IMG/VR virus record: IMGVR_UViG_3300045988_145891
Strand: one strand, 5' to 3'
DNA from: a virus
DNA: 44,868 bases
Both the position numbers and the translations under genes were made by a program. A model generated the notes under the pieces. The model did no database searches and was not told the origin of the DNA. It saw only the letters and a program-made list of their open reading frames with translations. This document shows positions 1-29,212 of this stretch, one piece after another. Positions within the stretch are counted from its first letter, which is position 1, and each line of letters opens with the position of its first letter.

Positions 1-55
1 CACTTGTTGAATATCAATATCTTCTTGAATAACTTTAGGTTTCATTTTTCTTAAC
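1..55. repeat. Terminal redundancy: bases 1-55 are identical to 44814-44868, a circular-assembly overlap or terminal repeat
   Basis: Direct string identity between the first 55 nt and the last 55 nt of the window. Confidence 0.9.
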
Positions 56-228
56 GTTCTAAGACTTCCTGTTTCAGTAGGAATAAGATTAATTATTCTA
101 TTAGCTGTCAAATAATATATTTGACTATCTTTATTTATTCCTATCTTATCTCCGACTTCTCCTAAAGTATAATCAGTCTGATAGAAGCTAGTGGTTGATT
201 TATAGCCATATGAGTTACCCTTAGCCAT
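1..228 (-). CDS. N-terminal segment (~61 aa) of the tail tubular protein B-like (T7 gp12-like) gene, continuing in frame at 43140..44868 across the circular junction
   Basis: ATG at 226-228 preceded by RBS GAGGAGG at 7-nt spacing and overlapping the upstream stop (ATGGCTAA). It reads in frame (183 nt = 61 codons) into the MKPKVIQ start at 45, which equals 44858. Confidence 0.5.
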   Translation of the reverse strand, partial: MAKGNSYGYKSTTSFYQTDYTLGEVGDKIGINKDSQIYYLTANRIINLIPTETGSLRTLRKMKPKVIQEDIDIQQV

Positions 229-817
229 TATATACACCTCCTCTAAGATTTAATGGTATTGCACTTCCCTCAGCTAATATAACATTAGTTTTCTCAACTT
301 GTAACTTACTTTCAAGATATGGTAACCTATCAGCATACATTGGTATAGTTTGAGCAAGTTTAACTGCTAACATCAATACAAGATAGTCCTTAATATACTC
401 TGGAAATTCTGTTAGTGGTAATCTTCTAACATAGTTAAGTATTAATGGGTTAGAGTATGAGTAGATATATTCTCCCTCTAATCTTAAATCAATAGGTCTA
501 TTTCCCCTAACTAAAGTCTGAATACTCTCAACTGTAAAAGGTGTTCTAGTATTAACAATAGGTTTCTTCTTAATTCCTAAAAAATCTTCTGGAACATTAT
601 ATCTATGTTCTCCTGTGTTAGTATCTAATTCACTAACTGTTAGTTGTACTGTTGTACTTGGAAAGTTAAACTCATTACTCTTACATACACTATCAGCTAT
701 ACTATTTAGTAACTTGGTTGCCATCTGATATATGTTACTTCTGTTATCATTGTAGTCAGTAATGTTTCCAACTGTAATAAGTGCTAATTCAATAATTTGT
801 CCTCTTTCTAACATTAT
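221..817 (-). CDS. Tail tubular protein A-like (T7 gp11-like adaptor/gatekeeper), ~198 aa
   Basis: Size and position immediately upstream of a ~630-aa partner. N-terminal and C-terminal (PE....Y.V) patterns resemble T7 gp11. Probable start is the third ATG, 8 nt after GGAGTG. Confidence 0.45.
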   Translation of the reverse strand: MMLERGQIIELALITVGNITDYNDNRSNIYQMATKLLNSIADSVCKSNEFNFPSTTVQLTVSELDTNTGEHRYNVPEDFLGIKKKPIVNTRTPFTVESIQTLVRGNRPIDLRLEGEYIYSYSNPLILNYVRRLPLTEFPEYIKDYLVLMLAVKLAQTIPMYADRLPYLESKLQVEKTNVILAEGSAIPLNLRGGVYNG

Positions 818-841
818 CATCACTCCTTTTTGATTTTATTA

Positions 842-870
842 TAACATAAAAGGCTAGGTGTTCCCTAGCC
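842..870. terminator. Hairpin GGCTAGG-tgttc-CCTAGCC with flanking T-rich tract between the holin stop and the gp11-like start
   Basis: 7-bp perfect stem with T-rich tracts on both strands. Confidence 0.35.
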
Positions 871-1134
871 ATTATTTTTCTTCCTTATTTCATCTGTTAG
901 TGCTTTGATTAATTTTCCGTGTTCTTCTAGTGCTTTTGTTGATTCTAACTGAATTTTAGAATTGACTTCTAATAGTTGCCTATTTGCAGCCATCAAATAA
1001 TTCATAAATTCAGTGTTTTGGTCTATAATCTTTTGAACATAGTGTTTCATCATTAAAACTACAACTATACCTATTGTTCCATTAATACCAGCTTCCTTTA
1101 ATACTTTAATTAAATCTAATTCCATAGGCACCAC
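865..1134 (-). CDS. Small holin-like protein (N-terminal TM, charged helical C-terminus; BhlA/UviB-type architecture), 89 aa
   Basis: One predicted TM (GINGTIGIVVVLMM) followed by coiled-coil. Lies immediately downstream of the endolysin. Confidence 0.45.
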   Translation of the reverse strand: MVPMELDLIKVLKEAGINGTIGIVVVLMMKHYVQKIIDQNTEFMNYLMAANRQLLEVNSKIQLESTKALEEHGKLIKALTDEIRKKNNG

Positions 1135-1512
1135 CTAATCATTTATTTGTACATGAGGTCCATCAATAAAGGTTTCCCAATATGCACCACATTCAATATT
1201 AAATCCAAGTCTATGAGCTAATTGCATTATAACATCAGCAAACTCTCTATAATACTTAATATCCCAAGTAACTTGTCCATTCTCATCTATTATTGCAATA
1301 TCAAAGGCACTACCTGTCAAGTGTTTAGATTTCATAGTCTTAGATTTACCCTCTGCTACAAGTTGCTTTTGTCTTTCCTCTGTCCTAACTCCCTCAGTTA
1401 CAACAAAATCATACGGGGAATAGTCCAGCATTAAACCAAGAAGTATTATCAGTCTAAAGTCAATACCTTCTATGTTAGATAAACTTCTTTTACTAAATTT
1501 GTATTTAGTCAT
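1135..1512 (-). CDS. Endolysin, peptidase M15 family (L-alanyl-D-glutamate / D-Ala-D-Ala zinc peptidase), single domain, 125 aa
   Basis: Motifs SKHLTGSAFDI (H-x3-G-x-A-x-D) and DGPHVQ (D-x-x-H) typical of Peptidase_M15/VanY-type lysins. No cell-wall-binding domain. Confidence 0.7.
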   Translation of the reverse strand: MTKYKFSKRSLSNIEGIDFRLIILLGLMLDYSPYDFVVTEGVRTEERQKQLVAEGKSKTMKSKHLTGSAFDIAIIDENGQVTWDIKYYREFADVIMQLAHRLGFNIECGAYWETFIDGPHVQIND

Positions 1513-1525
1513 ATTAAAACCTCCT

Positions 1526-1891
1526 TTATATTGTTATATAATCTTTTATATTATTAAAAGTTGTTTCTCCTATAAACTTTCTAATCTCGTATATATCTTT
1601 ATAAGGTCTGTTTTCTATTATCTTATTAGCTTTGACTTCTCCTATTCCATCAAGACTATCTAAAGCTTCATAAGAACAGTCATTAATATTAATCTTGTCT
1701 ATATTAGGTTTATTATCTATATTCACTATTTGAGCATTAGTCTGATAATTGTTATTATAAAAATTAGCTTTATAAAACATTATATTTAATGCAGCTAACA
1801 TAAACATTCCTAAAATATTTATGATACATAGAAAAAATACTAATTTAACAACCAAGTTTACATTTAGATTTCCATTTCTTTTTAAATTCAT
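1526..1891 (-). CDS. Membrane-anchored ComEA-like helix-hairpin-helix DNA-binding protein, ~121 aa
   Basis: N-terminal TM. C-terminus ININDCSYEALDSLDGIGEVKANKIIENRPYKDIYEIRKFIGETTFNNIKDYITI matches the ComEA HhH tandem (LxxLPGIG...GIGEKTFEKIKDYITV). RBS GAGGTGG before ATG at 1891. Confidence 0.65.
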   Translation of the reverse strand: MNLKRNGNLNVNLVVKLVFFLCIINILGMFMLAALNIMFYKANFYNNNYQTNAQIVNIDNKPNIDKININDCSYEALDSLDGIGEVKANKIIENRPYKDIYEIRKFIGETTFNNIKDYITI

Positions 1892-1962
1892 ATTTACCAC
1901 CTCATTTGTATTGTATCATTAAATTAAATTTTACGCTATAATCAATTTAGGTAGGTGGTGGT

Positions 1963-2154
1963 ATGTTATTTAGAAAGAATGTAGATTATGAAAAGATAAG
2001 TTTTAATTCTCCAAAAGAAGTGGTTAAGAAGATAGATGAGATAAGTGAGTTTTACTTTTGCAATAGAACTGATGTCATAAATGAAGCTATTAATTATTAT
2101 CACAAAAGTTTTAAAAAGAAATTGAATAGACTAGAAAAAAGAGAGCCTAAATAG
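1963..2154 (+). CDS. Ribbon-helix-helix (CopG/Arc/MetJ-like) DNA-binding protein, 63 aa, encoded antisense to the surrounding late operon
   Basis: RBS AGGTGGTGG. Pattern beta-strand KISFNSPKEV then helix ...NRTDVINEAINYY (R-S/T-D/E-h-I-x-EAI hallmark of RHH). Confidence 0.5.
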   Translation: MLFRKNVDYEKISFNSPKEVVKKIDEISEFYFCNRTDVINEAINYYHKSFKKKLNRLEKREPK

Positions 2155-2161
2155 ACTCTCT
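2134..2161 (-). terminator. Rho-independent terminator (AGAGAG-loop-CTCTCT + T6) after the 100-aa gene, overlapping the 3' end of the plus-strand RHH gene (bidirectional)
   Basis: 6-bp GC-containing stem followed by TTTTTT on the minus strand. Confidence 0.55.
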
Positions 2162-2165
2162 AATT

Positions 2166-2468
2166 TTATACTGTGAATTTAGAAATTTTCATTTTTAATT
2201 CTTCAATGTTTTCTATAACATAACAGTAGAATGTCTTATATTCAGAACTTCCTGTCATATTATTTGCTTTTTTATAAGTTTCTATCTTATCTTTGATGAT
2301 ATCTGCGTGTTCCATTCTTGATTTAGCGTCAGCCATTGTAAATCTAGCCATTTCTTTCTCATCATGTTCTTTCATCTTAATAGCTTCCCAATACATTCTC
2401 ATTCCATCATCAAGGTCATCTTGCATACGTCTATAAAGACTTTCTAATACTATATCGTGTTTTTCCAT
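2166..2468 (-). CDS. Hypothetical protein, 100 aa
   Basis: ORF with RBS in the late operon. No recognisable motif. Confidence 0.4.
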   Translation of the reverse strand: MEKHDIVLESLYRRMQDDLDDGMRMYWEAIKMKEHDEKEMARFTMADAKSRMEHADIIKDKIETYKKANNMTGSSEYKTFYCYVIENIEELKMKISKFTV

Positions 2469-2544
2469 TATATATCCTCTCCTATCATAAATCCTATTAT
2501 CATTCCTATTAGAAAAAAGAAGTTTTGCATAATATCACTTCCTT

Positions 2545-2868
2545 TTATTGTCCTCTCATCATTGAATAAAGTTTGTCAATATCCTGTTCGTTGAATATCA
2601 ATCCTTTTATTTCAATTTTACCTCCGGTAGCTTTTATTCCCTCTTTAGCTGCCTTGTATAATGCTTCTATATCAACATTTCCATCTTGGTCTATAATTTC
2701 CATAGACTGTAACAACTTCATGTGTTCTTGAATTAATTTTTCAGTTTTCCCCATAACTAGAACACTTCCTGTTGCTAATGCAAATTTCATTAATGAACTT
2801 GGCATAACAGGTAGTACTACATCTTTTATATATTTTCCTATTACTAATTCTACATCAACGATTTTCAT
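2545..2868 (-). CDS. Hypothetical protein, 107 aa
   Basis: ORF in the late operon. No recognisable motif. Confidence 0.4.
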   Translation of the reverse strand: MKIVDVELVIGKYIKDVVLPVMPSSLMKFALATGSVLVMGKTEKLIQEHMKLLQSMEIIDQDGNVDIEALYKAAKEGIKATGGKIEIKGLIFNEQDIDKLYSMMRGQ

Positions 2869-2917
2869 AGATTATCTCCTTTTTAGAAATTAAGGGTAGA
2901 TTTCTCTACCCTGTAAT

Positions 2918-3533
2918 TTATTTAGTTTGAGCATTTCCTGTAATGCTTACATTTGTAGGTGCTGCTGCAGTTGGTGCTGTCCAAGAGTTAAACTCTGGCA
3001 TAGGTTGTGGACAAATACTTCCTATTGGCATTACTAATTTACCTGGTACGAATGTTGCATTTACATAACAGTATAAGTTGTTATCTCCTGCAACTCTTCT
3101 TTCAGACTCGACTGCAATAGCTCCAGAAAGTCTTTCTTCAACTGCTTTTAATTTAAGGTCATTGATTTCTTGGTCTTTAGCCATAGTAGTTTTAATACAT
3201 TCAACTTCTTTATCAAGTCTTGAAACTGCATTTCCTACTTGTAAGAAACCATCAGTTACTTTTGCTAAAACTGCAGCTAATTTCTCATCTTCTTTTCTGA
3301 ACTCATTAAAAGTTTCCTTTTGAGTTGCTAGAGCAACTTGGTCTGCATATCTCTCTCCTCTACATTGAGCTAATTCTGCTTCTAATGTAGAAACTCTGTT
3401 AGTTGCACAGTTGTTACCAAAAAAGTCCTCCTAAAAGTCCATTCCCACAATTGCCATTCATTAGTCCTAATGCAGTACCTGCTATACCTAGTCCTAGTCC
3501 TGCTCCTGCTACACCTTTACTTGCGTATTCCAT
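2918..3533 (-). CDS. Frameshifted gene: N-terminal glycine-zipper TM segment (39-aa ORF 3414-3533), then a +1-frame coiled-coil and Pro/Cys-rich C-terminal part (open frame 3418 to 2918); i-spanin-like architecture
   Basis: Strong RBS AGGAGG before ATG 3533. The first frame stops at TAA 3414-3416, but the second frame is open with no start codon for 78 codons upstream of MAKDQ (3184). The junction is a T6/A6 homopolymer at 3419-3424. Confidence 0.5.
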
Positions 3534-3636
3534 AATGATACCTCCTAATAATATTATTAGAGATTTCTCTCTTAACTGAATAATATCACTTATTAAGAGA
3601 TAATATTGAAAAGAGTATAAAATAATATCAAGGCAA

Positions 3637-3670
3637 TAAAAAAAGCTAGAATAAATCTAGCTTTAAAAAA
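3637..3670. terminator. Bidirectional rho-independent terminator (AAGCTAGA-ataaa-TCTAGCTT flanked by A/T runs) after the membrane-protein gene
   Basis: 8-bp stem with T-runs on both strands. Confidence 0.55.
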
Positions 3671-3673
3671 ATT

Positions 3674-4006
3674 TTATTTTATTTTTTTGTCCATATGTTT
3701 TTTACCTAAAATCATACCTCCAAGTGCTAAAACAAGATAAGTTAGTTCCTCTGGAATAGGTAGAACATATATTTGTTTTCCAGTAAATGCAGTTAAGTAA
3801 GGTGCAACTATATGTTGATTAATTACCAATAATGAATAAACATAGAATAAGTGGAGTATTCCACCTCTTTCTATTATTCCAGAAAAAGCATTAATTTTTG
3901 TTTTTTCAACATCAGCCATTATCTCATCTACTTTTCCCTTGTCTAAATGTCTTTGGAGTAACTCTGGTAAAAATCTTTTTATTAAACCTAATATAAAATT
4001 ACTCAT
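3674..4006 (-). CDS. Small membrane protein with 2 predicted TM helices (possible holin), ~110 aa; start at the internal ATG with RBS GGGGG
   Basis: Hydrophobic segments LHLFYVYSLLVINQHIV and LTYLVLALGGMILG. The RBS supports the MSNF start rather than the ORF-track MYRKY start. Confidence 0.4.
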   Translation of the reverse strand: MSNFILGLIKRFLPELLQRHLDKGKVDEIMADVEKTKINAFSGIIERGGILHLFYVYSLLVINQHIVAPYLTAFTGKQIYVLPIPEELTYLVLALGGMILGKKHMDKKIK

Positions 4007-4106
4007 AATATACCCCCTATACTTTGCTATTCGTTGAATAATGTATTTCCTATACAAAATACTATAATTAATAGTCTAATGTATAAGAATTGATTTTAGA
4101 TATAAA

Positions 4107-6089
4107 TTATAGATTTTTAAGTGTATCATTCAATTTATCAACTTCATCAAAACTAAAAGTTCTAGGTTTAGTTTCTACTTTAGGTGTAGATGTAGTTCCT
4201 AAATATTTCTCCATAAATTTTACAACACTCTCTGGAATAGTAGGCTCTTCTAATCTCTCAACTAAACTCAAGTTCATCATTACATTGTTACCATACTGTT
4301 GCTCGAACTCTTCCCAAGTTAGATTAGGGTTGTCTTGTAATAATAACTCGTAAGCTTCGTATTTAGCTTTTTGTTCTGCTTCAACTTGTTTATCATACTT
4401 AAATTTCTCTAATGAATATTCTAAATAATCTTGTTTAACCCCCTCTAGTTCCATAGCATACTGCATTGTAGGTGTGTTAAGTGTCGAAATAACTTCATTA
4501 TTCAATGTTATTAATTTATTTTTTTCAGCTAACCTAAATATCAAATTGTTAAAGTCACTTTCAGTGTATGCAAACTTAGAATGTTGTGAAGTTAATATCC
4601 CTTTTGGGTTAAACGCATCATAAACATCTTTACTCTTATAATATCTTACTCCATCTACATTTAATTCATATTTAAAATCTCCTAAAGGTTGAACTAAAAC
4701 GTTGTAGTTACCTATTCTTGAATTAGATATATATATACTTACATTATCTCCATTTACATCAATAATTCTTTTTCCCGTTAAACCATTTTCGTATTCGAAT
4801 TTAGAATTTGATATATTAATATTAGCACTTGTTTTAATAACCCCCATAGCTGTATTTGCAGGTGCTGGAATAGCACTGAACAATCCTTTATTTGTTGTAG
4901 AATGATAATAAATAATTACATCACTCATAGTTGTCGGTTGATTAGTGTCTATCAAATAACCATCTATTCTCTCAGAAGAAAAGTTATTTATAATGCAATC
5001 TCCGTCGCCTCTTGAGTAAAAGAATGGTGTTGCTATATTTATTGTTCCGTTGTATTTCGATTGAACACCATAGCAATTACTTACAGACCAACCGTTGTTG
5101 TTTTGAGAATGTACAAAAAATCTTCCTGCATCAACGTGACATTGGTCTATAAATATATGGTTAGCACTACCTGTTATTTCCAATCCAGCGGTAAGCTCAT
5201 AAGCTTTATTGTATCCATAACATAAGCAATTACTTATATTACCCCAATCCATTCTACCTAACTTTATGAATGTAGCATTTGTTATTAACCTTTCCATTAA
5301 ATTTGGAGCAGAACTTCCTGTAAGACCTACTATATTAGGGTTTGAGTGTATTCTAGTTATATTATTTGCATCAACACATTTATCAATATGAATAAAAGTT
5401 TTTGTAGCAACCCCAATGACATCATCTATATAACTAGCTAGCAATCCTTTTGTAGCATCTATACCTACACAACACAATCCTAACGAAACTCTTTCTAATT
5501 TACAATACCCACCACTTTCTTTAAAATATACTTGAGCTTCACATTCTACATACTCATCTTTTGGAACACTAGAAAAACCATCATTCTGATAATAAGCCAT
5601 TCTTTTAATAGTTAAGTTTCTACATTTAAATCTATCCCCTACAATGAGTCCTTTACCTAAATGATTTACTGATATACCTAAATCATATATTTGAGTATTA
5701 TACTTTTTAGTTTCCAATTCTGATGAAACAAGGTAGAATTTATTTACATCTCCTCTTATTATATTTATGTAATTTAAAGCCTTTTGTATAGCTTGGGTGT
5801 CGTCTGTTTTGGTGTCTCCTTTAGCTCCAAACCAAGATACATTTACTTCTCCATTGTGTATAATATTAGCCCATTTACCATTATCAATCTGGATACCAGA
5901 ACCATCATCACTGTCAGCAATTATTCTCTTATGATTAGCTCCATCTCCAGCTTGGTAGTAGCCAAGAATTTCTACTACCTTGCCAGATTTTAATTTACTA
6001 TCTTTTTGCATTTCTGCTATTGTATTATATACTTTTGCATTACCACCTAGTAGTCCTATACCAAGTGGTACTGATTTATCTTTAGCCAT
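4107..6089 (-). CDS. Tailspike / depolymerase with pectate-lyase-like right-handed beta-helix, 660 aa
   Basis: N-terminal motif WFGAKGDTKTDDTQAIQKAL (Pectate_lyase_3 / GH28-type signature). Size and position next to the tail fibre. Confidence 0.65.
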   Translation of the reverse strand: MAKDKSVPLGIGLLGGNAKVYNTIAEMQKDSKLKSGKVVEILGYYQAGDGANHKRIIADSDDGSGIQIDNGKWANIIHNGEVNVSWFGAKGDTKTDDTQAIQKALNYINIIRGDVNKFYLVSSELETKKYNTQIYDLGISVNHLGKGLIVGDRFKCRNLTIKRMAYYQNDGFSSVPKDEYVECEAQVYFKESGGYCKLERVSLGLCCVGIDATKGLLASYIDDVIGVATKTFIHIDKCVDANNITRIHSNPNIVGLTGSSAPNLMERLITNATFIKLGRMDWGNISNCLCYGYNKAYELTAGLEITGSANHIFIDQCHVDAGRFFVHSQNNNGWSVSNCYGVQSKYNGTINIATPFFYSRGDGDCIINNFSSERIDGYLIDTNQPTTMSDVIIYYHSTTNKGLFSAIPAPANTAMGVIKTSANINISNSKFEYENGLTGKRIIDVNGDNVSIYISNSRIGNYNVLVQPLGDFKYELNVDGVRYYKSKDVYDAFNPKGILTSQHSKFAYTESDFNNLIFRLAEKNKLITLNNEVISTLNTPTMQYAMELEGVKQDYLEYSLEKFKYDKQVEAEQKAKYEAYELLLQDNPNLTWEEFEQQYGNNVMMNLSLVERLEEPTIPESVVKFMEKYLGTTSTPKVETKPRTFSFDEVDKLNDTLKNL

Positions 6090-9000
6090 TTATATCCTCC
6101 TTAAGAAACTTTCAATTTTATCAACATAATACTTTTTATATCCCTCTTCATTAGGGTGCCAACCATCTGATTGATAAGTATATTTTGCTCTTAAACTAGG
6201 TATGTAGTTTAGTGGTGGACAATCAGAATGTAAGTCAACATATGGTATTCCCCATTTCTTTAACATTTCAATAGATATATCATAGTAACTTTCATCATAA
6301 GTGACACTCATTTTGTGAACTATAATAAATCCTATTTTTTTACCAGCGAAACGTTCAACTGTTTGTTTGCACATAGATTCAAAAGCTCCACAGTATGTTG
6401 TATCATCAAATGATTTATCATATCCATCAGTTATAGTTCCTAACGGGGCTTTAACTCCTCCGTCATTTACACCACCTTCAAGTAATACATAATCTGCATC
6501 TGTATCTAAATCTTGTATAGAACGACAAATCCAAAACCTTTTAGCTCCTGATGAAGAATATTGTTCTGCTGTAATAGTCCCACCACCAACAGCTATATTT
6601 TGATATTTCATATTATTTCTATCAGCTATAATTTTGCCATAACCACCTAAAAATCCAGCACCAGCACAGATGCTATCTCCTGTTAATGCTATTTTTTTAC
6701 CATATAGTATATTTGTAGCCACATCTATATTGTCTTTTAAATCTACATTAGGTATTATTTCTTTATACCCATATGGTACATATTCATCAGAAATATAATT
6801 CAAATAACAAGTATGATTATCTATACGTCCTAAAACTCCATTCAATCTAACCTTAGATATTTTATTATTATGAGGAACTTCATATAGTCCTTTTATCTGT
6901 GTTCCAGTAGTAGGTTCTTCATAGCTTATTCTTTTCAAAGTGCTTATTTTATTACCAGCATCATCATAACAATAACCACCAATAGCCTCTCCGTATTGTG
7001 GCATATATATCTTATCTAAAGATTTAATTGGTATAAAGTTAGTTAAAAAATATCTCGTATGGTCTTTTATATCTCCTACACCATCAACATATACGTTTGG
7101 TGTTATATCGTTTTTATTGAATAAATTTACATACTTTATATTTGTAGAACTGCCTAGTGAATACGATTTTATCTTTTCTTGAGTAATACTATTATCCTTT
7201 ATCATTTGTTTTTCTATTGATTTGACAAACTTTTTCCCGAAAATTAATTCGTTATACTCATAATATGTATTATCAAATTCCCTATTGATAGATATAACTA
7301 TTTCATTCTCTCTTAATGTACGATAATTAACTTTTACATATGATATTGTTTTATCATTAGGAACTCTATATCTACCTTTTGTTTGTTTTATACCCGGTGA
7401 CTCCTCTTCATACCCTTCTCTCACTAAATCTGCAACAAAAACATCATCAGAAGTATAACAAGACCCACCTTTAGGTTCTCCATATAAATTATTTCTGATT
7501 AAATCATTAGGTTGAACTTTTATTTTATGAGAATAAGAATATGCCTCGTCCGTTAAAATCTCACCGCTAGATAAATAACCACCATCAACATTTTCAATTG
7601 AGCCTTTATCAAAATAGTTCCCTATATCTATATCTTCAATTTTTCTTACAGTAACAGCATTATCAGCTATTTTATTTGTTGTAATTGAATTATCTTCAAT
7701 AGTAGGAGATACTGGAGTTTCTCCTGTCATAGCATTTATAACTTCTTCTGATAGATTTATTAATTTAATTTTGTCAGAGTCAGATGATGTTTTGAATTTA
7801 TATGCTGGGATAGAGTTATCTTGTATATCTTGTTCTGATATTTTTTTATTCTTTAATTCTTCTATCTCTTGCATATTTGTATTACTGTTTCCTAAAGCCT
7901 TATTTATAGCATTAACTACATTTTTATCTGTATCGTTAATACCATTTTCAATTTTATTTAATTTTGAGTTATCTAAATCTTCTGCTGTTCCATTATAATT
8001 ACCTTTATCTAATTTTGATTCTTTCAACTCATTGATATCATATTTTGTAGCTAAACCAATTCTTTCTGCTGTATCTAAATCAACAACATCGTAATCTAAA
8101 TCATAACTATCTCCAATATCTATATAAGCAACTTGTTTACCATCTATTTCAGATATATGAGCTAAATATTGGAAAGTTCCTATTTCATTCTTAGTTCTTG
8201 ATAAACCACCATCTACTTCTTGAGATAGGAAATAATACTCATCATAAACAAATGTCTCTCCTTTATCATCTCTTGCTTGTGTAGGTATATTTACTACACC
8301 TCTAGTTACAACGTCAAATCTGTCGTTATCTATCTTAATCGCTATTCCATCAGCACTTGTATATTTATTTGCTTTTACCCATTTTCTTGTAGCTCCATCT
8401 AAAGTAACAGCAGTAAATACAAATCCGTGATTAGCTTGAGTAAATTGCATTGTATCAGTTTGCCCACCTAATTCTTGCCATTCACTCCATACTTCATTTA
8501 TTCTTACAACAAAGAGCATCTTTCCTGTTGTAGTATAATATCTAATTACTTGAGAGTTTCCACCATCAGTAATATCTTTCTTAACAACTCCTGCATTATC
8601 TGATGAGTTTAATTGAGGTGGATAATGAATATAATTTTTATTAAATAAATCTACTACTAACCAGTTACCTAAACCTATCTCAAGCCAGTCACTACCCTCT
8701 GGCATTAAACCTTTATCTGCTACTGCTTGGTCTATCATAGTTTGTAGTCTTTCTTCTAGTTGAGTAGTATAATCATCTAATCTTTGTTTTAAATCAGTTT
8801 CAACATACTCATCTAATTGTCTTTTAACTTCTTCTAGTAACTCTCTTTCAGCTACTTCTAAGTCTTGCTCTAGTAGTTTTAGAACTTCTTGTCTTAACTC
8901 TTGTACTAAGTCATTAAACTTCTCAAATAGGCTATCAACAGGCATAGCAGCCATATTACCGTCTTTATCCATATACCAAGTAGTATATGGTTTTAATTCT

Positions 9001-9446
9001 GCCATTATCTTGTTACCATTAGAACTATCCATTACCATACCAACATCTTTAAGATAAGTAAATAAGAAAGTAACATCAGCTATTACCTCATTTAAGTGTT
9101 GATTAAGAGTTATTACATCTATCTGTCCACTAGGACTGTATGGAGAAGAAGTTAAGTCAACTACTCTAGCTAATTGTATTGAGTAATACTCATCTAGTAT
9201 ATCTAGGTTAGTTATCTCTAATTGCTTATTTCCACCAACCTCATTAATTCTATAATCTCCCTTAGGCATTTCACTATAAGTTTCTAAGAAAGCTTCTTGA
9301 TTATATTTCCTATAAAACACTGTTACCTTAGTCATATCTATTGTATTAAGCTCATAAGTTGCTTGACCTTTAATAATTAAGAACTCCTTAATAGGTAACA
9401 TTATCTTACCATTTTTAAATCCTGCCATAATTCCTCCTTTATACAA
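6090..9446 (-). CDS. Tail fibre protein with coiled-coil shaft, tail-fibre repeat motifs and C-terminal SGNH/GDSL esterase domain, 1118 aa
   Basis: C-terminus carries GDS (KKIALTGDSICAGAGF), GxND (GGVNDGG) and DxxH (DGWHPN) SGNH blocks. Repeats DNSITTNKIADNAVTVRKI and DNSITQEKI. Long heptad coiled-coil at aa 170-235. Confidence 0.65.
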   Translation of the reverse strand: MYKGGIMAGFKNGKIMLPIKEFLIIKGQATYELNTIDMTKVTVFYRKYNQEAFLETYSEMPKGDYRINEVGGNKQLEITNLDILDEYYSIQLARVVDLTSSPYSPSGQIDVITLNQHLNEVIADVTFLFTYLKDVGMVMDSSNGNKIMAELKPYTTWYMDKDGNMAAMPVDSLFEKFNDLVQELRQEVLKLLEQDLEVAERELLEEVKRQLDEYVETDLKQRLDDYTTQLEERLQTMIDQAVADKGLMPEGSDWLEIGLGNWLVVDLFNKNYIHYPPQLNSSDNAGVVKKDITDGGNSQVIRYYTTTGKMLFVVRINEVWSEWQELGGQTDTMQFTQANHGFVFTAVTLDGATRKWVKANKYTSADGIAIKIDNDRFDVVTRGVVNIPTQARDDKGETFVYDEYYFLSQEVDGGLSRTKNEIGTFQYLAHISEIDGKQVAYIDIGDSYDLDYDVVDLDTAERIGLATKYDINELKESKLDKGNYNGTAEDLDNSKLNKIENGINDTDKNVVNAINKALGNSNTNMQEIEELKNKKISEQDIQDNSIPAYKFKTSSDSDKIKLINLSEEVINAMTGETPVSPTIEDNSITTNKIADNAVTVRKIEDIDIGNYFDKGSIENVDGGYLSSGEILTDEAYSYSHKIKVQPNDLIRNNLYGEPKGGSCYTSDDVFVADLVREGYEEESPGIKQTKGRYRVPNDKTISYVKVNYRTLRENEIVISINREFDNTYYEYNELIFGKKFVKSIEKQMIKDNSITQEKIKSYSLGSSTNIKYVNLFNKNDITPNVYVDGVGDIKDHTRYFLTNFIPIKSLDKIYMPQYGEAIGGYCYDDAGNKISTLKRISYEEPTTGTQIKGLYEVPHNNKISKVRLNGVLGRIDNHTCYLNYISDEYVPYGYKEIIPNVDLKDNIDVATNILYGKKIALTGDSICAGAGFLGGYGKIIADRNNMKYQNIAVGGGTITAEQYSSSGAKRFWICRSIQDLDTDADYVLLEGGVNDGGVKAPLGTITDGYDKSFDDTTYCGAFESMCKQTVERFAGKKIGFIIVHKMSVTYDESYYDISIEMLKKWGIPYVDLHSDCPPLNYIPSLRAKYTYQSDGWHPNEEGYKKYYVDKIESFLRRI

Positions 9447-9472
9447 AAATAGGTGGGTTTCCCCACCTTATT

Positions 9473-11658: not shown

Positions 11659-11974
11659 TTTTATCCTCCTTTTCTATTTTCTTTGTGTTGAGTTCGTGTA
11701 TTATTCTAGCTTTTCTAGTTAGTTCCAAATCATACTTAAGTTTCATTAGACTATCTCTTTTGCTTGGATATTGTCCATTTTCAACATAATACATTTCCTC
11801 TCCTTCTTTTATATCCATAATACAATAATTTATTAGATTTTGCAACTCTTTATTATCACAAAACATTTGCAATAGTTTTTTGTATTCTTTATTTACTGAT
11901 AAAACTGTATTTAAGTTCTCATCATAATATCCTTCATTTTCTTTTTTTATTTCTTCAAGCAACTTATTGTCCAT
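11645..11974 (-). CDS. Hypothetical protein, 109 aa
   Basis: ORF between portal and scaffold. Confidence 0.35.
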   Translation of the reverse strand: MDNKLLEEIKKENEGYYDENLNTVLSVNKEYKKLLQMFCDNKELQNLINYCIMDIKEGEEMYYVENGQYPSKRDSLMKLKYDLELTRKARIIHELNTKKIEKEDKNEKV

Positions 11975-13508
11975 TAGTTCCTCCTAACATTTGTTGAGCT
12001 TGTAAACTACTAGCAACTGCACTTTGCTTACTTGCTTCTCTCTCTTGATTAGTTAGCAATAATTCAGTATCTATTCTTAACTTGTCAGCCATATACTCAA
12101 TAGTCTTATCAGTGTTGAATATAAAGAAAGCATCTTGAGGGAAAATACCTTGTGATATTTGCACCATATTAACTATACCTTCTATCTTTTGCATATCAAC
12201 ACTCTTAGTAAGTGCATTGATAAATCTTGCCTTAAAGTATTTGTTATCATCTATCTTTTCTAGTAAATCCTTAGCAAGTAGTATTGCTCTAGGTTTATAG
12301 AAAGTAGGAATTAATACTTCTTTGAATAAGTTAGTTACTGCATCGTCAAATTTTTGTTGTAATAAATTCATTCTATATTGTATCTCATCAGTTGCCCTTG
12401 TAGTCTTGTTTTCAGCACTTCCAAAAGGGTTATTGAAGTGTAGTGCTTGTATAGTTGCTGTAAGTCTATCAATGTCCTTTTCAGTAGGTAATAGAGTACC
12501 TGTGGTATTGATAGGAGTTACTCCAGCCTTAACACTTAGTCCATCTCCTCCCCAGTTTAAACCATTAGGTGTTAAATCAAAAGCTTCTACTAATCTCTTA
12601 TCTCCATATAATAATAATGGTGGGTCAACTATTCTTAATGCTTGTCTAGCTCTTAAATTTTCATAGAATACTAATCTTTGGTAACAATCTAAAGCAACTG
12701 CACCTATTCCCATTCCCCAGCTAGATTGAGGTACAACACTAAATCTAAATACTGTGAAAGGGTTATAGTCATATATTCTCTCATCATATACTTCTGCTAT
12801 ACTATCATCAAATAATAACCACTCAAATTTTTGAACTCCATTCTCATTAAAAGGTACAACACATTCAGTAAAAGTAAATTTATTGTCTTCTTCTAAACTT
12901 CCAATATTAGCTCCAGGAAATATCTGAACTATTTCACTAGACTTTTTATTATAAACTTTTCTAAAGACTATATTAGGTTCTCCTCTATAATCTTCCATAA
13001 ACAATAACTCATTGATAGGAATATATTTAAAGTTAAAAGGGTCTGCATCAGAACTTAATTCATTTATTCTATAACAAGCTGTTCCAAGCTCCCCCCAGTC
13101 ATAAATACCTCTACCAATCTCTTGTTTGTAGTTAGTATTTCTTAAATACTCAAAAGTATCTTTTGTTTGAGATTCTAAAGTTTTTCTCAATTTCTTGACT
13201 GTTTCCTCTAATGCTTCTCCTGTAAATTTTCTATTCTGCCTAACTAGAGGAATAATAACATCACTCTCTGCCCAATCAGTTTCAACACCAAATAGTGCAT
13301 AAATAACAAAATTTTTAAAAGAATTACAAGCATCTCTTATCTCTGAATTTATGGTCCTATTGATAAAATCCTCTGGTAGTGCTATTGTATCAGCGTGTCC
13401 AAAAGGTAAGGTGTATTCCATTATCTGATTATATTGTGGAATGATAGCTTGTTTTTCAGCAACACAAGCCTTATAAAGTTCTTGATAATGTTCTAAATTA
13501 TTAAGCAC
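11964..13508 (-). CDS. Portal protein (putative), 514 aa
   Basis: Size and position between the terL region and the scaffold/capsid genes. Confidence 0.5.
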   Translation of the reverse strand: MLNNLEHYQELYKACVAEKQAIIPQYNQIMEYTLPFGHADTIALPEDFINRTINSEIRDACNSFKNFVIYALFGVETDWAESDVIIPLVRQNRKFTGEALEETVKKLRKTLESQTKDTFEYLRNTNYKQEIGRGIYDWGELGTACYRINELSSDADPFNFKYIPINELLFMEDYRGEPNIVFRKVYNKKSSEIVQIFPGANIGSLEEDNKFTFTECVVPFNENGVQKFEWLLFDDSIAEVYDERIYDYNPFTVFRFSVVPQSSWGMGIGAVALDCYQRLVFYENLRARQALRIVDPPLLLYGDKRLVEAFDLTPNGLNWGGDGLSVKAGVTPINTTGTLLPTEKDIDRLTATIQALHFNNPFGSAENKTTRATDEIQYRMNLLQQKFDDAVTNLFKEVLIPTFYKPRAILLAKDLLEKIDDNKYFKARFINALTKSVDMQKIEGIVNMVQISQGIFPQDAFFIFNTDKTIEYMADKLRIDTELLLTNQEREASKQSAVASSLQAQQMLGGTNGQ

Positions 13509-13849: not shown

Positions 13850-14593
13850 TTATAATATATTGTTTGATAATATCATATAATTTATATTATCTTTTGTAAA
13901 TTCTTTTTTATTTTTATATCTCTTAGACAATCTTTTTAGCCAAGTTCCTGTACCTTTTAAGGTCCAACAAAAACCAATACAACCATAAGTGCTGTGAATA
14001 TATTCTAGTAACTCATTACCATCACTAAAAAAGTTCTTAGGACTACCAAAATTGATATAACTAAGAAAAGGAATTGTACCAATAACATTAAGGCACATAA
14101 AAAATCCATCATAGAAAAACACTCTATCATTCTGATAATTATTCAAAAAATGAGGATATTTAATTAAATCAACTTCTGGCATCTTATCACTAGGTATTTC
14201 AGTAAATTTACCAAAATGTCTGTTTTTTAATAAATTATTTATTAGTAATCTACTAAGTTCTTTCTTAATATCATAATCATCACTAATAATAATAACTAGG
14301 TCCACTTGAGGAATATCAGTTATATTGTTTCTATAAAGATAATTACTATGAAAAATATTTTTATAAGTTAAATGGTTACGACTTGTTTTATATTTTTTAG
14401 CAACATTCTCAATCTCCATATAACTACTTATTTTCTCAACTATTGCTTTTTTACAAAAAAGTCTAATAATATTATTTATAAAATTAAGTTTTTTTAGGTT
14501 AGGTTTTAACTCTCCTTGATATAAACTATCACTTGATTTTATATTTTTTTCAACTAACATATCTAAATCAATAACTAATTTATTATCAATCAT
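13850..14593 (-). CDS. Hypothetical Asn/Ile/Lys-rich protein, 247 aa; moron-like insertion between terL and portal; DxD-like motif VDLVIIISDDYD
   Basis: Visibly more AT-rich than the flanking terL and portal genes. Breaks the usual terL-portal adjacency. Confidence 0.4.
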   Translation of the reverse strand: MIDNKLVIDLDMLVEKNIKSSDSLYQGELKPNLKKLNFINNIIRLFCKKAIVEKISSYMEIENVAKKYKTSRNHLTYKNIFHSNYLYRNNITDIPQVDLVIIISDDYDIKKELSRLLINNLLKNRHFGKFTEIPSDKMPEVDLIKYPHFLNNYQNDRVFFYDGFFMCLNVIGTIPFLSYINFGSPKNFFSDGNELLEYIHSTYGCIGFCWTLKGTGTWLKRLSKRYKNKKEFTKDNINYMILSNNIL

Positions 14594-16092
14594 CAGAAAT
14601 TCCCCCTAAAGTTACTAAAACTATTTCCTTTTAATTTACTTGTCATCATCTCTGAAATAAGATTATCTACTGCCCTTCCTCTAAATCCAGGAATATTAAC
14701 ATTAGTTATTCTAGCAACATCGGACTTCATTATCTTATCTCTTACGTTTTTATCATATCCTTCCTCAAACATTTCGCCAAATATGAAAGCAACTAGGTAC
14801 TTAAGACTATCAATAACGTGGTCTTCATAAATACCACTTCTCTTGTCAACTTCCATAGTAGGTTTACCTGTTATTTTATTTTCCTTGTAATTAACACTCG
14901 CTAATTCCTTGATAATAGCATCTCCTAACTCCCCAGCAATAATACCAAGTCTACTAGTTTCTAACACTCTTCTAGTTATTTGTAATAGTCTAATATTATC
15001 AGTTCTCTGAATGATATTAACTCTCCAATTGTATGGCACGTGTTTTTCTATCTCTTTTTTCCTATTCAACTTACCAGAATATCCTTGAATATCGTGAGCA
15101 GCATCAAAAGGTAATATGATATTAACCTTATGAGTTGAGTACTTATTCACTTGATTATGTATTTCCTCAATAAATTCTGATAAATTAGTCTGATTCTTAA
15201 TCATTCTATTAACAATAACAGGAAAGTCCATTTTCTCATCTCTATAACAAGTGTACATAACAGTATAGTCTGACTGTCCTAAGTCAAAACTAAAATATAA
15301 CTCTCTATGTTGCCCTAATGTAAAGTCACTAACAGGTATTCTTCTAGCCTTAAGTAAACTCTCTCCAAGTACTGAAAATGAGTTCATAACAGCAGTACTA
15401 CACATATACTCTTGCTCAAAACTAGATGAGTCAAATTCAGCTCTTAACATTGTTAGCTTATCATCTGGATATACTCTACTACCATCAGCATTATGTAATA
15501 TATTAGCAGGTACTCTTACTTTGATGTATCTTTGAGATTCTGGCAAGTTACCATCTATCAGCTCGTTAAAGTCTGATGAATAGAATGGTGTACTAATCTC
15601 AAGTATTCTACCATTTGCCCTGTTTACGTTACCTTTTAAGTACTTCCAAGACTCTCTAGGAATACGAGAACTTTCAGTAATAATAAGTGCATCAACTGAT
15701 GTTCCTAATTCACTGTTTTGGTCGCTACCAGCAATATATAATATACTACCATTCTTATACTTAAAACAACTCATCTCTCTGTGGAAATAATCTCCAGCAA
15801 GAGTAGGTTTTAGTAAATCAGTATCAATAATACCCATAAACATTGGTTTACCTGTCTTATCATCATTAGCAGTAAGTATCTTCTTAACTGCCTTAAGACT
15901 AACACCTAAATAGACAATGTTACTACCAGGTTTACATACTGCCAATGTATTAGCACACATAACACCTGTGAAGTCCTTACCAGCTCCTCTAGCAGCAGTA
16001 AGAGCTATCCTTGCTTCTGGTAATAAGAACTGTTGCATAACATATTGTTGGAAATCTCTAAGTAAAAATCTTGGTAATAGTTTCTTACTCAT
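14593..16092 (-). CDS. terL: Terminase large subunit (putative), 499 aa
   Basis: Walker-A-like LTAARGAGKD near the N-terminus. Asp-rich C-terminal nuclease-like region (ILPFDAAHD). Translationally coupled (ATGA) to the upstream small gene. Lies upstream of the portal. Confidence 0.55.
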   Translation of the reverse strand: MSKKLLPRFLLRDFQQYVMQQFLLPEARIALTAARGAGKDFTGVMCANTLAVCKPGSNIVYLGVSLKAVKKILTANDDKTGKPMFMGIIDTDLLKPTLAGDYFHREMSCFKYKNGSILYIAGSDQNSELGTSVDALIITESSRIPRESWKYLKGNVNRANGRILEISTPFYSSDFNELIDGNLPESQRYIKVRVPANILHNADGSRVYPDDKLTMLRAEFDSSSFEQEYMCSTAVMNSFSVLGESLLKARRIPVSDFTLGQHRELYFSFDLGQSDYTVMYTCYRDEKMDFPVIVNRMIKNQTNLSEFIEEIHNQVNKYSTHKVNIILPFDAAHDIQGYSGKLNRKKEIEKHVPYNWRVNIIQRTDNIRLLQITRRVLETSRLGIIAGELGDAIIKELASVNYKENKITGKPTMEVDKRSGIYEDHVIDSLKYLVAFIFGEMFEEGYDKNVRDKIMKSDVARITNVNIPGFRGRAVDNLISEMMTSKLKGNSFSNFRGNF

Positions 16093-16789: not shown

Positions 16790-16830
16790 ATTATATCATA
16801 TCACTTATTTTATTAAAAGTTTACATTTTT
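16790..16830 (-). promoter_or_regulatory. Late-operon promoter with extended -10 (AATAAGTGATATGATATAAT on the minus strand)
   Basis: TGnTATGAT / TATAAT about 25 nt upstream of the terS-like RBS. Shares the TAAGTGATAT motif with other promoters in this genome. Confidence 0.5.
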
Positions 16831-19771: not shown

Positions 19772-20081
19772 AAATAGCAAAGATTATATAACAACCTTAG
19801 AAACATATTTAAAAAGATTGGCTGGAGATAATCCAGCCTTTACTATACTAACTCAATTCAAGTCTAGCAGCTACTACGGTAGAAAAAATAAAATAGGACC
19901 AGCTGCAGCCTTTAAAGAGTTTTTACAAGCTGGAGAGATTCCAGGATTACCCATCACAGATGAGCAACTAACAACTTTCTTTAAAAATATTATGTTAGCA
20001 AGTCCAGGAGAACTGGAGAGAATGAAAAACAAGTTTAATACTTATTCAAACATCATTTATAGATTTATTAGGGAGTCTTAA
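19761..20081 (+). CDS. Hypothetical protein, 106 aa
   Basis: ORF overlapping the clamp gene end. Confidence 0.4.
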   Translation: MINKNSKDYITTLETYLKRLAGDNPAFTILTQFKSSSYYGRKNKIGPAAAFKEFLQAGEIPGLPITDEQLTTFFKNIMLASPGELERMKNKFNTYSNIIYRFIRES

Positions 20082-20098
20082 AAGACTCTCTTTTTTTT
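20072..20098 (+). terminator. Rho-independent terminator (GAGTCTT-aa-AAGACTC + T8) overlapping the stop codon of the 106-aa gene
   Basis: 7-bp stem followed by TTTTTTTT. Confidence 0.65.
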
Positions 20099-22106: not shown

Positions 22107-22135
22107 ATTATATCACTTTTGTTAATAAAAGTCAA
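22107..22135 (-). promoter_or_regulatory. Promoter B (minus): TTGACT-N17-TGaTATAAT extended -10, directly after a terminator, driving the Erf operon
   Basis: Consensus elements with the TSS about 20 nt upstream of the Erf RBS. Confidence 0.6.
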
Positions 22136-22161
22136 ATAAAAAAGAGAGGTGTTACCCTCTC
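22136..22161 (-). terminator. Rho-independent terminator (GGAGAGG-gtaaca-CCTCTC + TTTTTATTT) after the 91-aa gene
   Basis: 6-bp GC-rich stem followed by a T-run on the minus strand. Confidence 0.6.
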
Positions 22162-22437
22162 CTATTCAAAACATTCTTCTGTTACTACATCATAGTTTTC
22201 TGATGTTGAGCATGGTGTTCCTATTTCTCCGTGAGCTTTTAAAGTATCATAATGTATTCTGCAACTTAATATTTCAGCATATTTTCTCATATAACTTTTT
22301 TGTAAATGTAAATTAATTCTCTGCTCTTCATCAGTGAATTTAGGTTCTTTAGTTTCTTTCTTAAGGAAAATTTCTAATTTTTCTATTTTTTCCTCTAATT
22401 CTTGTAGTTCAACTTCCATTCTTTTAATATGTTCCAT
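22162..22437 (-). CDS. Hypothetical coiled-coil protein, 91 aa
   Basis: ORF whose RBS overlaps the stop of the upstream small gene. Confidence 0.4.
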   Translation of the reverse strand: MEHIKRMEVELQELEEKIEKLEIFLKKETKEPKFTDEEQRINLHLQKSYMRKYAEILSCRIHYDTLKAHGEIGTPCSTSENYDVVTEECFE

Positions 22438-25741: not shown

Positions 25742-26050
25742 CTAAAATGGAAAAACAGACTCACTATCTTCTTCCTCAACATCATCTTGCTTTTTAACAG
25801 TACCAATAGTTATTTTAACCTCTTTCTTAGAATTATAATTATCTAAGATAGCTTGAGTAAACTCTTTCTTAGCCATTATGTAACTCTTCCATTCTTCTCC
25901 ACTCTTATAACTTGGATATGCTAAGAAATCTCCATTCTTACCTTCTCTTACATTTACACCTGTTATCCATATTATTCCATCTATTCCTATTGATAGACTA
26001 GCTTTTACTCCTTGTAAGCTACTCTTAAAACTTTTAATTGTTATTTCCAT
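25742..26050 (-). CDS. SpoVG-like nucleic-acid-binding protein with acidic SSB-like C-terminal tail (EEEDSESVFPF), 102 aa
   Basis: MEITIKSFKSSLQGVKASLSIGIDGIIWITGVNVREGKNGDFLAYPSYKSGEEWKSYI...AILDNY parallels SpoVG (MEVTDVRL...[30 protein letters not shown]...). The C-terminal acidic tip is like the SSB DDDIPF. Confidence 0.5.
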   Translation of the reverse strand: MEITIKSFKSSLQGVKASLSIGIDGIIWITGVNVREGKNGDFLAYPSYKSGEEWKSYIMAKKEFTQAILDNYNSKKEVKITIGTVKKQDDVEEEDSESVFPF

Positions 26051-28999: not shown

Positions 29000-29117
29000 A
29001 AAAGATGACCCGATAATTTTATTAATAATAATGGTTGCTATCATATTTGCAATTTCATATGGTATTGACTTAATTAACTTTATTATCAAGGTAAAGATAT
29101 TTAAATGGTTTATGTAG
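28989..29117 (+). CDS. Small TM protein, 42 aa (MKDKKDDPIILLIIMVAIIFAISYGIDLINFIIKVKIFKWFM)
   Basis: ATGA overlap with the upstream stop. Followed by a terminator. Confidence 0.35.
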   Translation: MKDKKDDPIILLIIMVAIIFAISYGIDLINFIIKVKIFKWFM

Positions 29118-29143
29118 GAGAGGATAACACCTCTCTTTTTTTA
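29118..29143 (+). terminator. Rho-independent terminator (GAGAGG-ataaca-CCTCTC + T7)
   Basis: 6-bp stem followed by TTTTTTT. Confidence 0.65.
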
Positions 29144-29151
29144 TAAAAATA

Positions 29152-29180
29152 TATTGACTTATTAATTATAATTTGTTATA
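29152..29180 (+). promoter_or_regulatory. Promoter TTGACT-N17-TATAAT for the replication operon
   Basis: Consensus hexamers about 30 nt upstream of the AbrB-like gene RBS. Confidence 0.55.
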
Positions 29181-29212
29181 ATAGGTTATATCAAAAGTAA
29201 CAAGGAGGAACT

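Follow-up and report, generated by a model that had tools for sequence, protein, structure and literature searches.

A ribbon-helix-helix gene with putative overlapping divergent promoters in a proposed autonomous late-region cassette of an uncultured podovirus-like phage

Ribbon-helix-helix (RHH) repressors of the CopG/RHH_1 class typically regulate their own synthesis, through an operator that overlaps their own promoter. In phage P22, mnt is transcribed opposite to its cargo, from a promoter that lies back-to-back with the cargo promoter. Here we examine a 63 amino acid RHH gene in the late region of the phage represented by IMG/VR record IMGVR_UViG_3300045988_145891, a sequence of 44,868 nucleotides that was analyzed at its full length and is called the window below. 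The closest described arrangement is the immI region of P22, the “ant moron,” an independently expressed unit in the late operon that is controlled by the RHH repressors Mnt and Arc and by the antisense RNA sar; it adjoins the tailspike gene and affects read-through into that gene (PMC2629481, PMC8022706). More generally, a moron is a unit of promoter, gene, and terminator in the late operon of lambdoid phages (PMC2629481). We hold with moderate confidence that the RHH protein of the window is a local regulator of an autonomous, terminator-insulated cassette whose output promoter competes with that of the RHH gene itself.

As the original prediction had it, the RHH gene is a plus-strand gene inside a minus-strand late region, and it is the only one in that block (coordinates of all features are collected in Table 1). 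Its position and orientation are identical in every recovered contig of related phages. Eight close homologues, all from Logan or ENA assemblies, are 73-98% identical to it, and the pairwise ratio of nonsynonymous to synonymous divergence (dN/dS) among four lineages is 0.11-0.19 (dS 0.5-1.0). Homologues and dN/dS together identify the open reading frame (ORF) as a protein-coding gene under purifying selection. The assignment of its product to the RHH class rests on family and fold, because the window protein by itself falls short of the Pfam cut-off (RHH_8, E = 0.068, 13.7 bits against 25.4) and of every RHH gathering score; it also weakly matches the PHROG repressor families 876 and 7325 (E about 1e-3 to 1e-4). 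A profile search of 1.84 billion representative proteins returned 13 relatives. Pfam RHH_1 is matched by eight of the 15 family members (best E 3e-9) and RHH_8 by five of the 15, and the best PDB matches of the family profile are ORF56, EndoAI, NikR, Rv0298, and a CopG-family regulator (E 0.03-0.65). The AlphaFold model of the monomer (predicted local distance difference test, pLDDT, 79 overall and above 88 for residues 21-60) consists of an extended segment (residues 9-17), helix A (18-30), a tight NRTD turn, and a long basic helix B (35-60), i.e., the strand, helix, turn, and helix of the RHH fold. Nearly all Foldseek matches to this model are RHH proteins, with root-mean-square deviations of 0.7-1.7 A over 33-48 residues and, for so small a domain, E-values above 0.1. 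K11, S13, and N15, which alternate along the strand, show no or almost no variation within the family, as expected of residues that would contact bases. By this evidence of family and fold, we accept the 63 amino acid protein as an RHH protein.

Two further observations concern the protein. Weak matches link five family members to the model of crAss tail hub protein A (PF25724) and to residues 162-202 of PDB entry 7qoj_G, a hint that this virion protein contains a segment of RHH type. Many of the nearest Foldseek matches are antitoxins (ParD, MazE-mt10, VapB). A toxin-antitoxin reading was rejected because no toxin-like partner is co-transcribed; from its promoter to the hairpin that follows, the RHH gene shares the plus strand with no other ORF, and both of its neighbors are on the opposite strand.

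On its upstream side, the RHH gene diverges from a gene for a protein with a transmembrane (TM) helix and a helix-hairpin-helix (HhH) domain, which we call TM-HhH. The original prediction started TM-HhH at GTG 1900 and gave the divergent region 62 bp; with the start corrected to ATG 1891, behind the Shine-Dalgarno (SD) sequence GAGGTGG, the region is 71 bp long (1892-1962). It also expected two promoters here, one for the RHH gene and one for the minus-strand genes downstream, and candidates for both emerge from a comparison of 12 loci (the window, L015, L018, L025, L041, L027, L028, L031, L033, L035, L042, and L043, where L numbers denote related loci). TGnTAyAAT faces the HhH gene in 12 of 12 loci. 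TATAAT faces the RHH gene equally in 12 of 12, and is TG-extended (TGnTATAAT) in 10 of them, where the window reads CGC. The separation of the two -10 hexamers is 21 bp in nine loci and 22 bp in three. An alignment of 12 close loci resolves into two conserved islands with variable sequence between them. Island 1, CACCTCAwTTGTATTGTATCATTA (1897-1921), reads on the minus strand as TAATGATACAATACAAATGAGGTGG, i.e., the extended -10 TGATACAAT followed by the SD; island 2, (T/C)GCTATAAT (1934-1942), is the plus-strand extended -10 of most relatives. The distant lineages (L027, L028, L031, L033, L035/36, L042, and L043) have the same promoter design and no other intergenic sequence in common. Within the window genome, five of the seven exact TGnTATAAT sites are intergenic, while intergenic DNA makes up 12.5% of the sequence, and this bias indicates a promoter type that the phage uses. 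With the hexamers 21 bp apart, the upstream half of each promoter would overlie the -10 of the other, from which we infer that their occupancy is mutually exclusive: the start sites would be only about 45-48 bp apart, and the region would hold one RNA polymerase at a time.

At its other end, the RHH gene converges on the gene for a 100 amino acid protein, p100, and a minus-strand terminator that was predicted to overlap its 3′ end is matched by a conserved terminator-like hairpin (2140-2161) with a U-run. On the minus strand the hairpin has nine pairs followed by UUUUU(C) (dG -13.8 kcal/mol, z = -4.0, 0 of 200 shuffles as stable) and starts 4 nt from the p100 stop. It overlaps the last seven RHH codons and the stop, the TAG (2152-2154) covering the loop and the 3′ stem, and the RHH codons for E-K-R-E (GAAAAAAGAGAG) supply the opposite strand with its U-run and stem. 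On the plus strand, a C.A mismatch takes the place of the minus-strand G.U pair (dG -10.7 kcal/mol, tail AAUUUUAU). The original prediction had called the terminator bidirectional; for the window this holds only in part, the plus side being the weaker. A hairpin between the convergent genes was found in all lineages, and the minus-strand advantage in stability, about 3 kcal/mol, recurs in L015, L018, and L025. Good U-runs flank it on both sides in L025, L033, and L035; the L015 group has one on the minus side and none on the plus side, and L028 has one on the RHH-sense strand only. In L042 (3135-3422) the RHH ORF has no stop at the hairpin and is about 30 codons longer, reaching into the 3′ end of p100 in antisense and making 95 amino acids in total; since the ORF passes the hairpin, a transcript that ended there would carry no stop codon. 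Stems of the type AGAGAG/AGGAGAGG...CTCTCT are common to several terminators of the window (2140-2161, 20070-20091, 22142-22163, 29116-29137, and 35578-35598), and the hairpin at 20070-20091 (AGGGAGTCTTAAAAGACTCTCT) strongly resembles that of the RHH gene.

Does this terminator end the transcription that arrives from the virion genes, as had been claimed? The evidence does not support it. The late module contains six minus-strand terminator-like hairpins (9468, 3664, 2912, 2161, 870, and 35598), and those at 9468 and 2912 leave no space for a downstream promoter, so that read-through must occur and must be common; within 1-6000, terminator-like sites number nine against 1.2 expected. These two hairpins lend themselves to a plain account of the locus, in which the RHH gene and p100 are an ordinary convergent pair with a shared terminator that is read through. 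The RHH protein would then be a dispensable accessory that has its target elsewhere or regulates only itself, e.g., a phage-wide regulator, an orphan antitoxin-like protein, or an anti-defense factor. The L028 hairpin fits this account, as its U-run would end the RHH transcript and not the late ones, and so do the antitoxins among the nearest structural matches and the two natural nonsense alleles described below. It fits less well with an RHH gene that is monocistronic between promoter and terminator, with no toxin-like gene co-transcribed, and with a conserved promoter motif that is single-copy in the genome. That the RHH gene stays strictly linked to TM-HhH, and the promoter geometry fixed, in otherwise dissimilar phages is hard to explain without a local function. 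We consider the account improbable but a serious rival; should local regulation fail as a model, an ordinary convergent gene pair with a common terminator is what the locus would amount to.

The same convergent layout, with its embedded terminator, is conserved, and it might serve control at the level of RNA, with convergent or antisense transcription across 1963-2161 acting by interference or as an antisense RNA on late read-through or on the 3′ end of p100, and the ORF being secondary. In the window the plus-strand terminator is weak, and the L015 group has none, so that RHH-sense transcripts could enter p100 in antisense; both promoters and the hairpin are intact in the nonsense alleles; and immI makes use of the antisense RNA sar (PMC2629481). 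The dN/dS values and the signature residues, however, show selection on the protein, and no Rfam family matches the window. A role exerted chiefly by RNA is therefore, in our estimate, very unlikely.

Turning to the gene content of the cassette, alignments reveal homologues of p100, of TM-HhH, and of a small TM/coiled-coil protein (TM-CC) in all lineages, which defines an invariant core of p100, RHH, TM-HhH, and TM-CC. The order of these genes is kept in podovirus-like phages and in phages with sheath and baseplate. The p100 homologue at the matching position has 98-101 amino acids in every lineage, and terminators equivalent to 870..852 follow the TM-CC gene in all lineages examined. One 63 amino acid RHH homologue, P0011 (118 index blocks), comes from another kind of phage (contigs of about 41 kb with a sheath-initiator/baseplate gene), where the order at the end of the late module is a 101 amino acid protein, RHH (plus strand), HHH_3, M15, and a 148 amino acid protein. 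TM-HhH has a single strong N-terminal TM helix (about residues 13-40, by hydropathy) and a C-terminal HHH_3 domain (Pfam E = 4e-10, above the cut-off), the HhH domain being 50-57% identical to bacterial proteins of the SLBB+HHH_3 type. Wherever the gene downstream of TM-HhH was examined, it encodes a TM/coiled-coil partner and is translationally coupled to TM-HhH. In the podovirus clade, the TM-CC terminator is followed by the conserved TGTTATAAT, an SD, and the tail-tubular-A gene, and this second extended -10 would restart transcription of the tail-tubular-A-like gene. With sequence signals for a promoter of its own, bracketing terminators, and a restart for the virion genes, the cassette has the anatomy of a moron. 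The original prediction had placed the RHH gene just upstream of the lysis cassette. A picture in which that cassette closes the late operon has to be revised, as the genome is circular and the tail-tubular and internal virion protein genes lie downstream with a -10 element of their own (846..838).

The endolysin is not the constant partner of the RHH gene: TM-HhH and TM-CC are the invariant partners, and an endolysin is found within the unit only in the types represented by the window, L028, and L042. In L031, L033, L035, and L036 the endolysin (M15_3 or Phage_lysozyme) is encoded two to four genes upstream, outside the unit, and a gene for 85-107 amino acids directly follows HHH_3. In the window phage, the cassette holds the only endolysin. 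Nothing shows that the 86 amino acid TM-CC protein is the holin it was proposed to be.

This distribution bears on another reading of the unit, as a superinfection-exclusion or host-modifying moron in which TM-HhH, exposed outside the cytoplasm, and TM-CC act on DNA at the envelope, for instance by trapping incoming DNA. The promoter would be of host sigma-70 type and independent of late transcription, the RHH protein would only restrain the level of expression, and some lineages would carry the endolysin as a passenger. A promoter of its own and flanking terminators inside a late operon are what define a moron (PMC2629481), and the P22 ant moron also bears sieA (PMC2629481). The endolysin is absent from the unit in L043 as well as in the four lineages just named, and in the temperate L039 the TM-HhH/TM-CC pair sits at the junction from lysis genes to integrase, a usual site of conversion genes. 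A cytoplasmic M15 endolysin without a holin would be harmless, so that late expression need not be forced. On the other hand, the window has yielded no integrase, recognizable lysogeny repressor, or other obvious lysogeny module, a conclusion drawn from the absence of matches only. The unit is always beside or inside the lysis region, and in three lineages the endolysin is embedded between the two membrane-protein genes. Searches of PHROGs and Pfam gave HHH_3 only and no homology to known exclusion proteins. We give this reading a small but real chance and count it a serious rival.

How, then, would local regulation by the RHH protein work? In the mechanism that we favor, the 63 amino acid protein would be a CopG/Arc/Mnt-type repressor within a self-contained, horizontally mobile late-region cassette, which in minus-strand order would comprise p100, the terminator T(2161..2140), RHH on the opposite strand, the promoters P(+)/P(-), TM-HhH, the M15 endolysin (in this lineage), TM-CC, and the terminator T(870..852). 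A dimer of RHH dimers would bind within 1892-1962, repress its own promoter, and set the output of P(-), from which TM-HhH and TM-CC would be expressed, together with the sole endolysin of this phage. The hairpin at 2161..2140 would attenuate late transcripts coming from the tail-fiber side, leaving expression of the unit mostly to P(-). Those late transcripts that read through would be antisense to the RHH mRNA and would collide with RHH transcription, and RHH synthesis would fall as late transcription rises. The downstream virion genes would restart at their own promoter, and the net result would be a membrane/lysis unit whose timing and level are uncoupled from virion-gene transcription. 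The parts of this scheme differ in strength. Local repression by the RHH protein is most likely; late convergent read-through is a plausible route to shutting down RHH late in infection; and since the sole endolysin of this phage lies in the unit, regulation of lysis timing by the RHH protein is one possible reading.

Where might the RHH protein bind? The 21-bp spacer is the most likely site of a putative operator. A tandem direct repeat, TTGTATTGTAT, occurs in the podovirus clade only and is not enriched in the genome (five matches against 3.5 expected), and the conserved 25-nt block (1897-1921) has no second copy in the genome. In L035 (4931-5000; the same in L036), there is a perfect 19-bp inverted repeat, CCTCAAATCATTATATCAT / ATGATATAATGATTTGAGG, seen nowhere else. 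Each of its arms holds a -10, a leader, and an SD, so that one divergent promoter with its leader exactly mirrors the other; gene conversion might account for this, or an operator common to both.

Several findings weigh against the proposed mechanism. No operator was found in the spacer, as dyad symmetry across 11 lineages does not rise above that of shuffles (35 of 69 positions against 29.4 expected). The conserved block overlaps the promoter and the SD and is thus indistinguishable from an operator, and similarity between the two leaders is not significantly higher within lineages than between them (p 0.09-0.16). In the window P(+) is without the TG of an extended -10, and neither promoter has a good -35; both promoter activity and terminator efficiency are read from sequence signals. 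The L028 hairpin, with its U-run on the RHH-sense strand only, does not fit a terminator acting on late transcripts. The TM-HhH/TM-CC pair also occurs without an RHH gene, in L038 and L039, at the lysis-region end of a temperate phage with a serine integrase, and Clostridium phage CB452P1 (OP172752.1, 17628-17957) encodes a TM-HhH homologue with neither a TM-CC partner nor an RHH gene.

The remaining point against the mechanism comes from natural variation in the RHH gene. In L022-L024 (three samples, including a 44.6-kb contig), which are 98-99% identical to the window over 8 kb, codon 41 has changed from GAA to TAA (E41*), with loss of helix B. In L043, a podovirus less closely related to the window, codon 11 is TAG (3371-3373) and the remainder is in frame. 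Promoters and hairpin are retained in both alleles, and these relatives are otherwise intact. Being independent, the two alleles show that the RHH gene can evidently be dispensed with, and whatever role its protein has is not essential. Recoding of the in-frame stops was rejected as an explanation: the window has no tRNA genes, one of the two stops is TAA, and the neighboring long genes are intact under code 11.

It is tempting to carry the argument further. The four-gene unit might be a mobile phage module not described before, in which a ComEA DNA-binding domain of host origin would be the effector. Placed outside the membrane, this domain would capture or block DNA at the envelope or take a new kind of part in lysis, as effector or timer. 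Late antisense read-through would flip a switch made up of the RHH protein and the mutually exclusive promoters, and the nonsense alleles would be timing or exclusion variants comparable to rapid-lysis or virulent mutants. We regard this larger picture as unlikely and put it forward as speculation.

Table 1. Features of the cassette and of the surrounding late region, with positions in the window
Feature	Position	Strand	Remarks
Terminase	14593-16092	minus	PHROG/Pfam
Portal	11964-13508	minus	PHROG/Pfam
Tail fiber	6090-9446	minus	PHROG/Pfam
Tailspike	4107-6089	minus	PHROG/Pfam
p100 gene	2166-2468	minus	100 amino acids; last gene of upstream late unit, convergent with RHH gene, always adjoining
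Terminator-like hairpin	2134-2161	minus	stem 2140-2148 / 2153-2161, loop 2149-2152, U-run 2139..2134
RHH gene	1963-2154	plus	63 amino acids; ATG start
SD of RHH gene	1949-1961	plus	AGGTAGGTGGTGG; strong, kept in relatives
P(+), -10 element	1934-1942	plus	CGCTATAAT; hexamer TATAAT 1937-1942; for RHH gene (putative)
Spacer between -10 hexamers	1916-1936		21 bp, A/T-rich; length kept, sequence not
P(-), extended -10	1918..1910	minus	TGATACAAT; for TM-HhH / endolysin / TM-coiled-coil unit (putative)
SD of TM-HhH gene	1903..1897	minus	GAGGTGG; 5 nt ahead of ATG 1891
TM-HhH gene	1526-1891	minus	121 amino acids; start ATG 1891
M15 endolysin	1135-1512	minus	125 amino acids; Peptidase_M15_4 E = 2e-9, PHROG 465 endolysin E = 2e-45
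TM-CC gene	865-1125	minus	86 amino acids; weak N-terminal hydrophobic segment and coiled-coil tail; last gene of unit
Cassette-closing terminator hairpin	852-870		GGCTAGG..CCTAGCC and minus-strand U-run
Extended -10	846..838	minus	TGTTATAAT; directly past cassette terminator; kept in L015, L018, L022, L025
Tail-tubular-A-like gene	221-823	minus	PHROG/Pfam
Tail-tubular-B-like gene	43140-228, across junction	minus	PHROG/Pfam
Internal virion protein genes	42514-43143, 40473-42503, 35602-40434	minus	PHROG/Pfam

The genome that surrounds the cassette has a G+C content of 30% and a podovirus-like layout on the minus strand, judging by PHROG and Pfam matches. A 55-bp direct repeat stands at both ends of the window (1-55 and 44814-44868), and an ORF that runs off position 1 resumes in frame at the other end, which makes the window a complete genome of about 44.8 kb that was assembled as a circle. 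The ORF in question is the tail-tubular-B-like gene. Its true start is ATG 228 (minus strand), and it runs past position 1 into 43140-44858; the ATG 44858 of the ORF-finder list is inside the terminal repeat and is not its true start. The late minus-strand block runs from 16092 to 1 and then over the circular junction from 44868 to 35602, a module of about 25 kb, with a run of small minus-strand genes between the tailspike gene and the RHH cassette region. Replication genes lie in a plus-strand block and recombination genes in a second minus-strand block; jointly these encode Erf, Gam, DnaD, DnaB, and dUTPase. No phage RNA polymerase was found in the window. Extended -10 elements are clustered in intergenic DNA (838-846, 1910-1918, 16790-16798, 22107-22115, 29174-29182, and 33615-33623) and are likely starts of transcription units; one of them, at 16798, precedes the late genes on the terminase side. 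Transcription of the whole phage genome appears to depend on promoters of the host sigma-70 type.

Among cultured phages, the Fusobacterium phages phiBB and FNU4 come nearest, with a portal identity of just 29%. Region 1-6000 has no DNA match in the phage collection, and the RHH protein no tblastn match there; the RHH protein has no relatives in IMG/VR or GTDB genomes and is found at one locus in the JGI metagenomes, and the TM-HhH and portal proteins have no relatives in IMG/VR. The p100 protein belongs to no Pfam or PHROG family. Its AlphaFold model (pLDDT 89.8) is a soluble three-helix bundle (helices H3-34, H38-68, and H77-96), whose structural matches are generic only: designed bundles and the lactose/cellobiose EIIA of the phosphotransferase system (PTS), which agrees in size and topology at a TM-score of about 0.7-0.75 and with no sequence similarity. 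The likeness to PTS EIIA is probably a generic bundle resemblance. At 2918-3533 lies a gene whose 204 amino acid product in the 98%-identical L022, where the gene is intact, has a glycine-zipper TM segment followed by a coiled coil. The window copy is broken into ORFs of 39 and 88 amino acids by one T too many in a minus-strand T5/T6 run (about 3419-3424); misassembly, a real frameshift, or slippage may be the cause. Finally, the window encodes a crAss001_48-related protein (22162-22437, Pfam E = 6e-16) and a SpoVG-like protein (25742-26050, E = 4e-7).

We now compare the locus with the systems that it most resembles. The RHH protein shares its fold, its size class, and the succession of strand, helix, N-R-T-D turn, and helix with CopG/RHH_1 repressors such as pMV158 CopG and pRN1 ORF56. 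It differs from them in its long basic helix B (35-60), in last codons that also supply the opposite strand with the U-run and 5′ stem of a terminator, and in being encoded by a monocistronic gene and not by the first gene of a cop/rep operon.

With the lambdoid morons, the cassette has in common a promoter of sigma-70 type, bracketing intrinsic terminators, a place between virion genes, and genomic positions that differ from phage to phage. Unlike them, it has a dedicated regulator and, in three lineages, carries an endolysin, which serves a core function; with no integrase found, expression from a prophage is not to be assumed here.

The downstream gene had been described as ComEA-like. An N-terminal membrane anchor and a C-terminal HHH_3 domain are indeed common to TM-HhH and ComEA, and to this extent the description stands. 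As ComEA proper it fails: TM-HhH is without the SLBB/oligomerization domain, it misses the NCBIfam cut-offs (TIGR01259/TIGR00426; 33.8 against 152 bits and 24.6 against 53.1 bits), and it is encoded by a phage, next to a TM/coiled-coil partner in an operon of the lysis region. Judged from its domains, TM-HhH is ComEA-derived or ComEA-like, not ComEA. Membrane-anchored ComEA-like HhH proteins recur in the lysis regions of unrelated phages, with or without an RHH gene. To our knowledge, no function has been assigned to such a protein in any phage. This unexplained phage-borne partner, the clean and conserved promoter geometry, and the natural null alleles are what make the locus of interest. If the proposed regulation is true, the 63 amino acid protein, the 71-bp region, and those alleles would offer a simple experimental handle on the control of lysis or exclusion in an uncultured phage group.

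The closest comparison is with P22 immI. Both belong to short-tailed phages, and both are highly exchangeable late-operon cassettes near tail-fiber or tailspike genes with a small RHH repressor and with independent expression, which for the cassette described here is predicted from sequence signals. Antisense transcription and an influence on late read-through into virion genes, both features of immI, are proposed for it. Signals for a promoter and terminator of its own mark it as an independent unit in the late operon, and its divergent RHH gene has a putative promoter that overlaps the cargo promoter, with -10 hexamers 21-22 bp apart in 12 loci. The two differ in their cargo, which in P22 is an antirepressor and here consists of TM-HhH, a TM/coiled-coil protein, and, in the window phage, the endolysin. 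There is one RHH gene here and no arc-like second repressor in the unit, and no sequence relation to Mnt or Arc past the fold (Arc ranked 33rd or lower in the Foldseek list). Operators are known for P22, and a lysogeny module was not found here. The cassette would thus work like immI but is, on this comparison, not a member of it, since cargo and sequences differ. If this is true, the logic of immI, in which an RHH repressor is combined with overlapping divergent promoters and terminator insulation, would be a general design, reused by unrelated phages of low-GC anaerobes for membrane and lysis functions.

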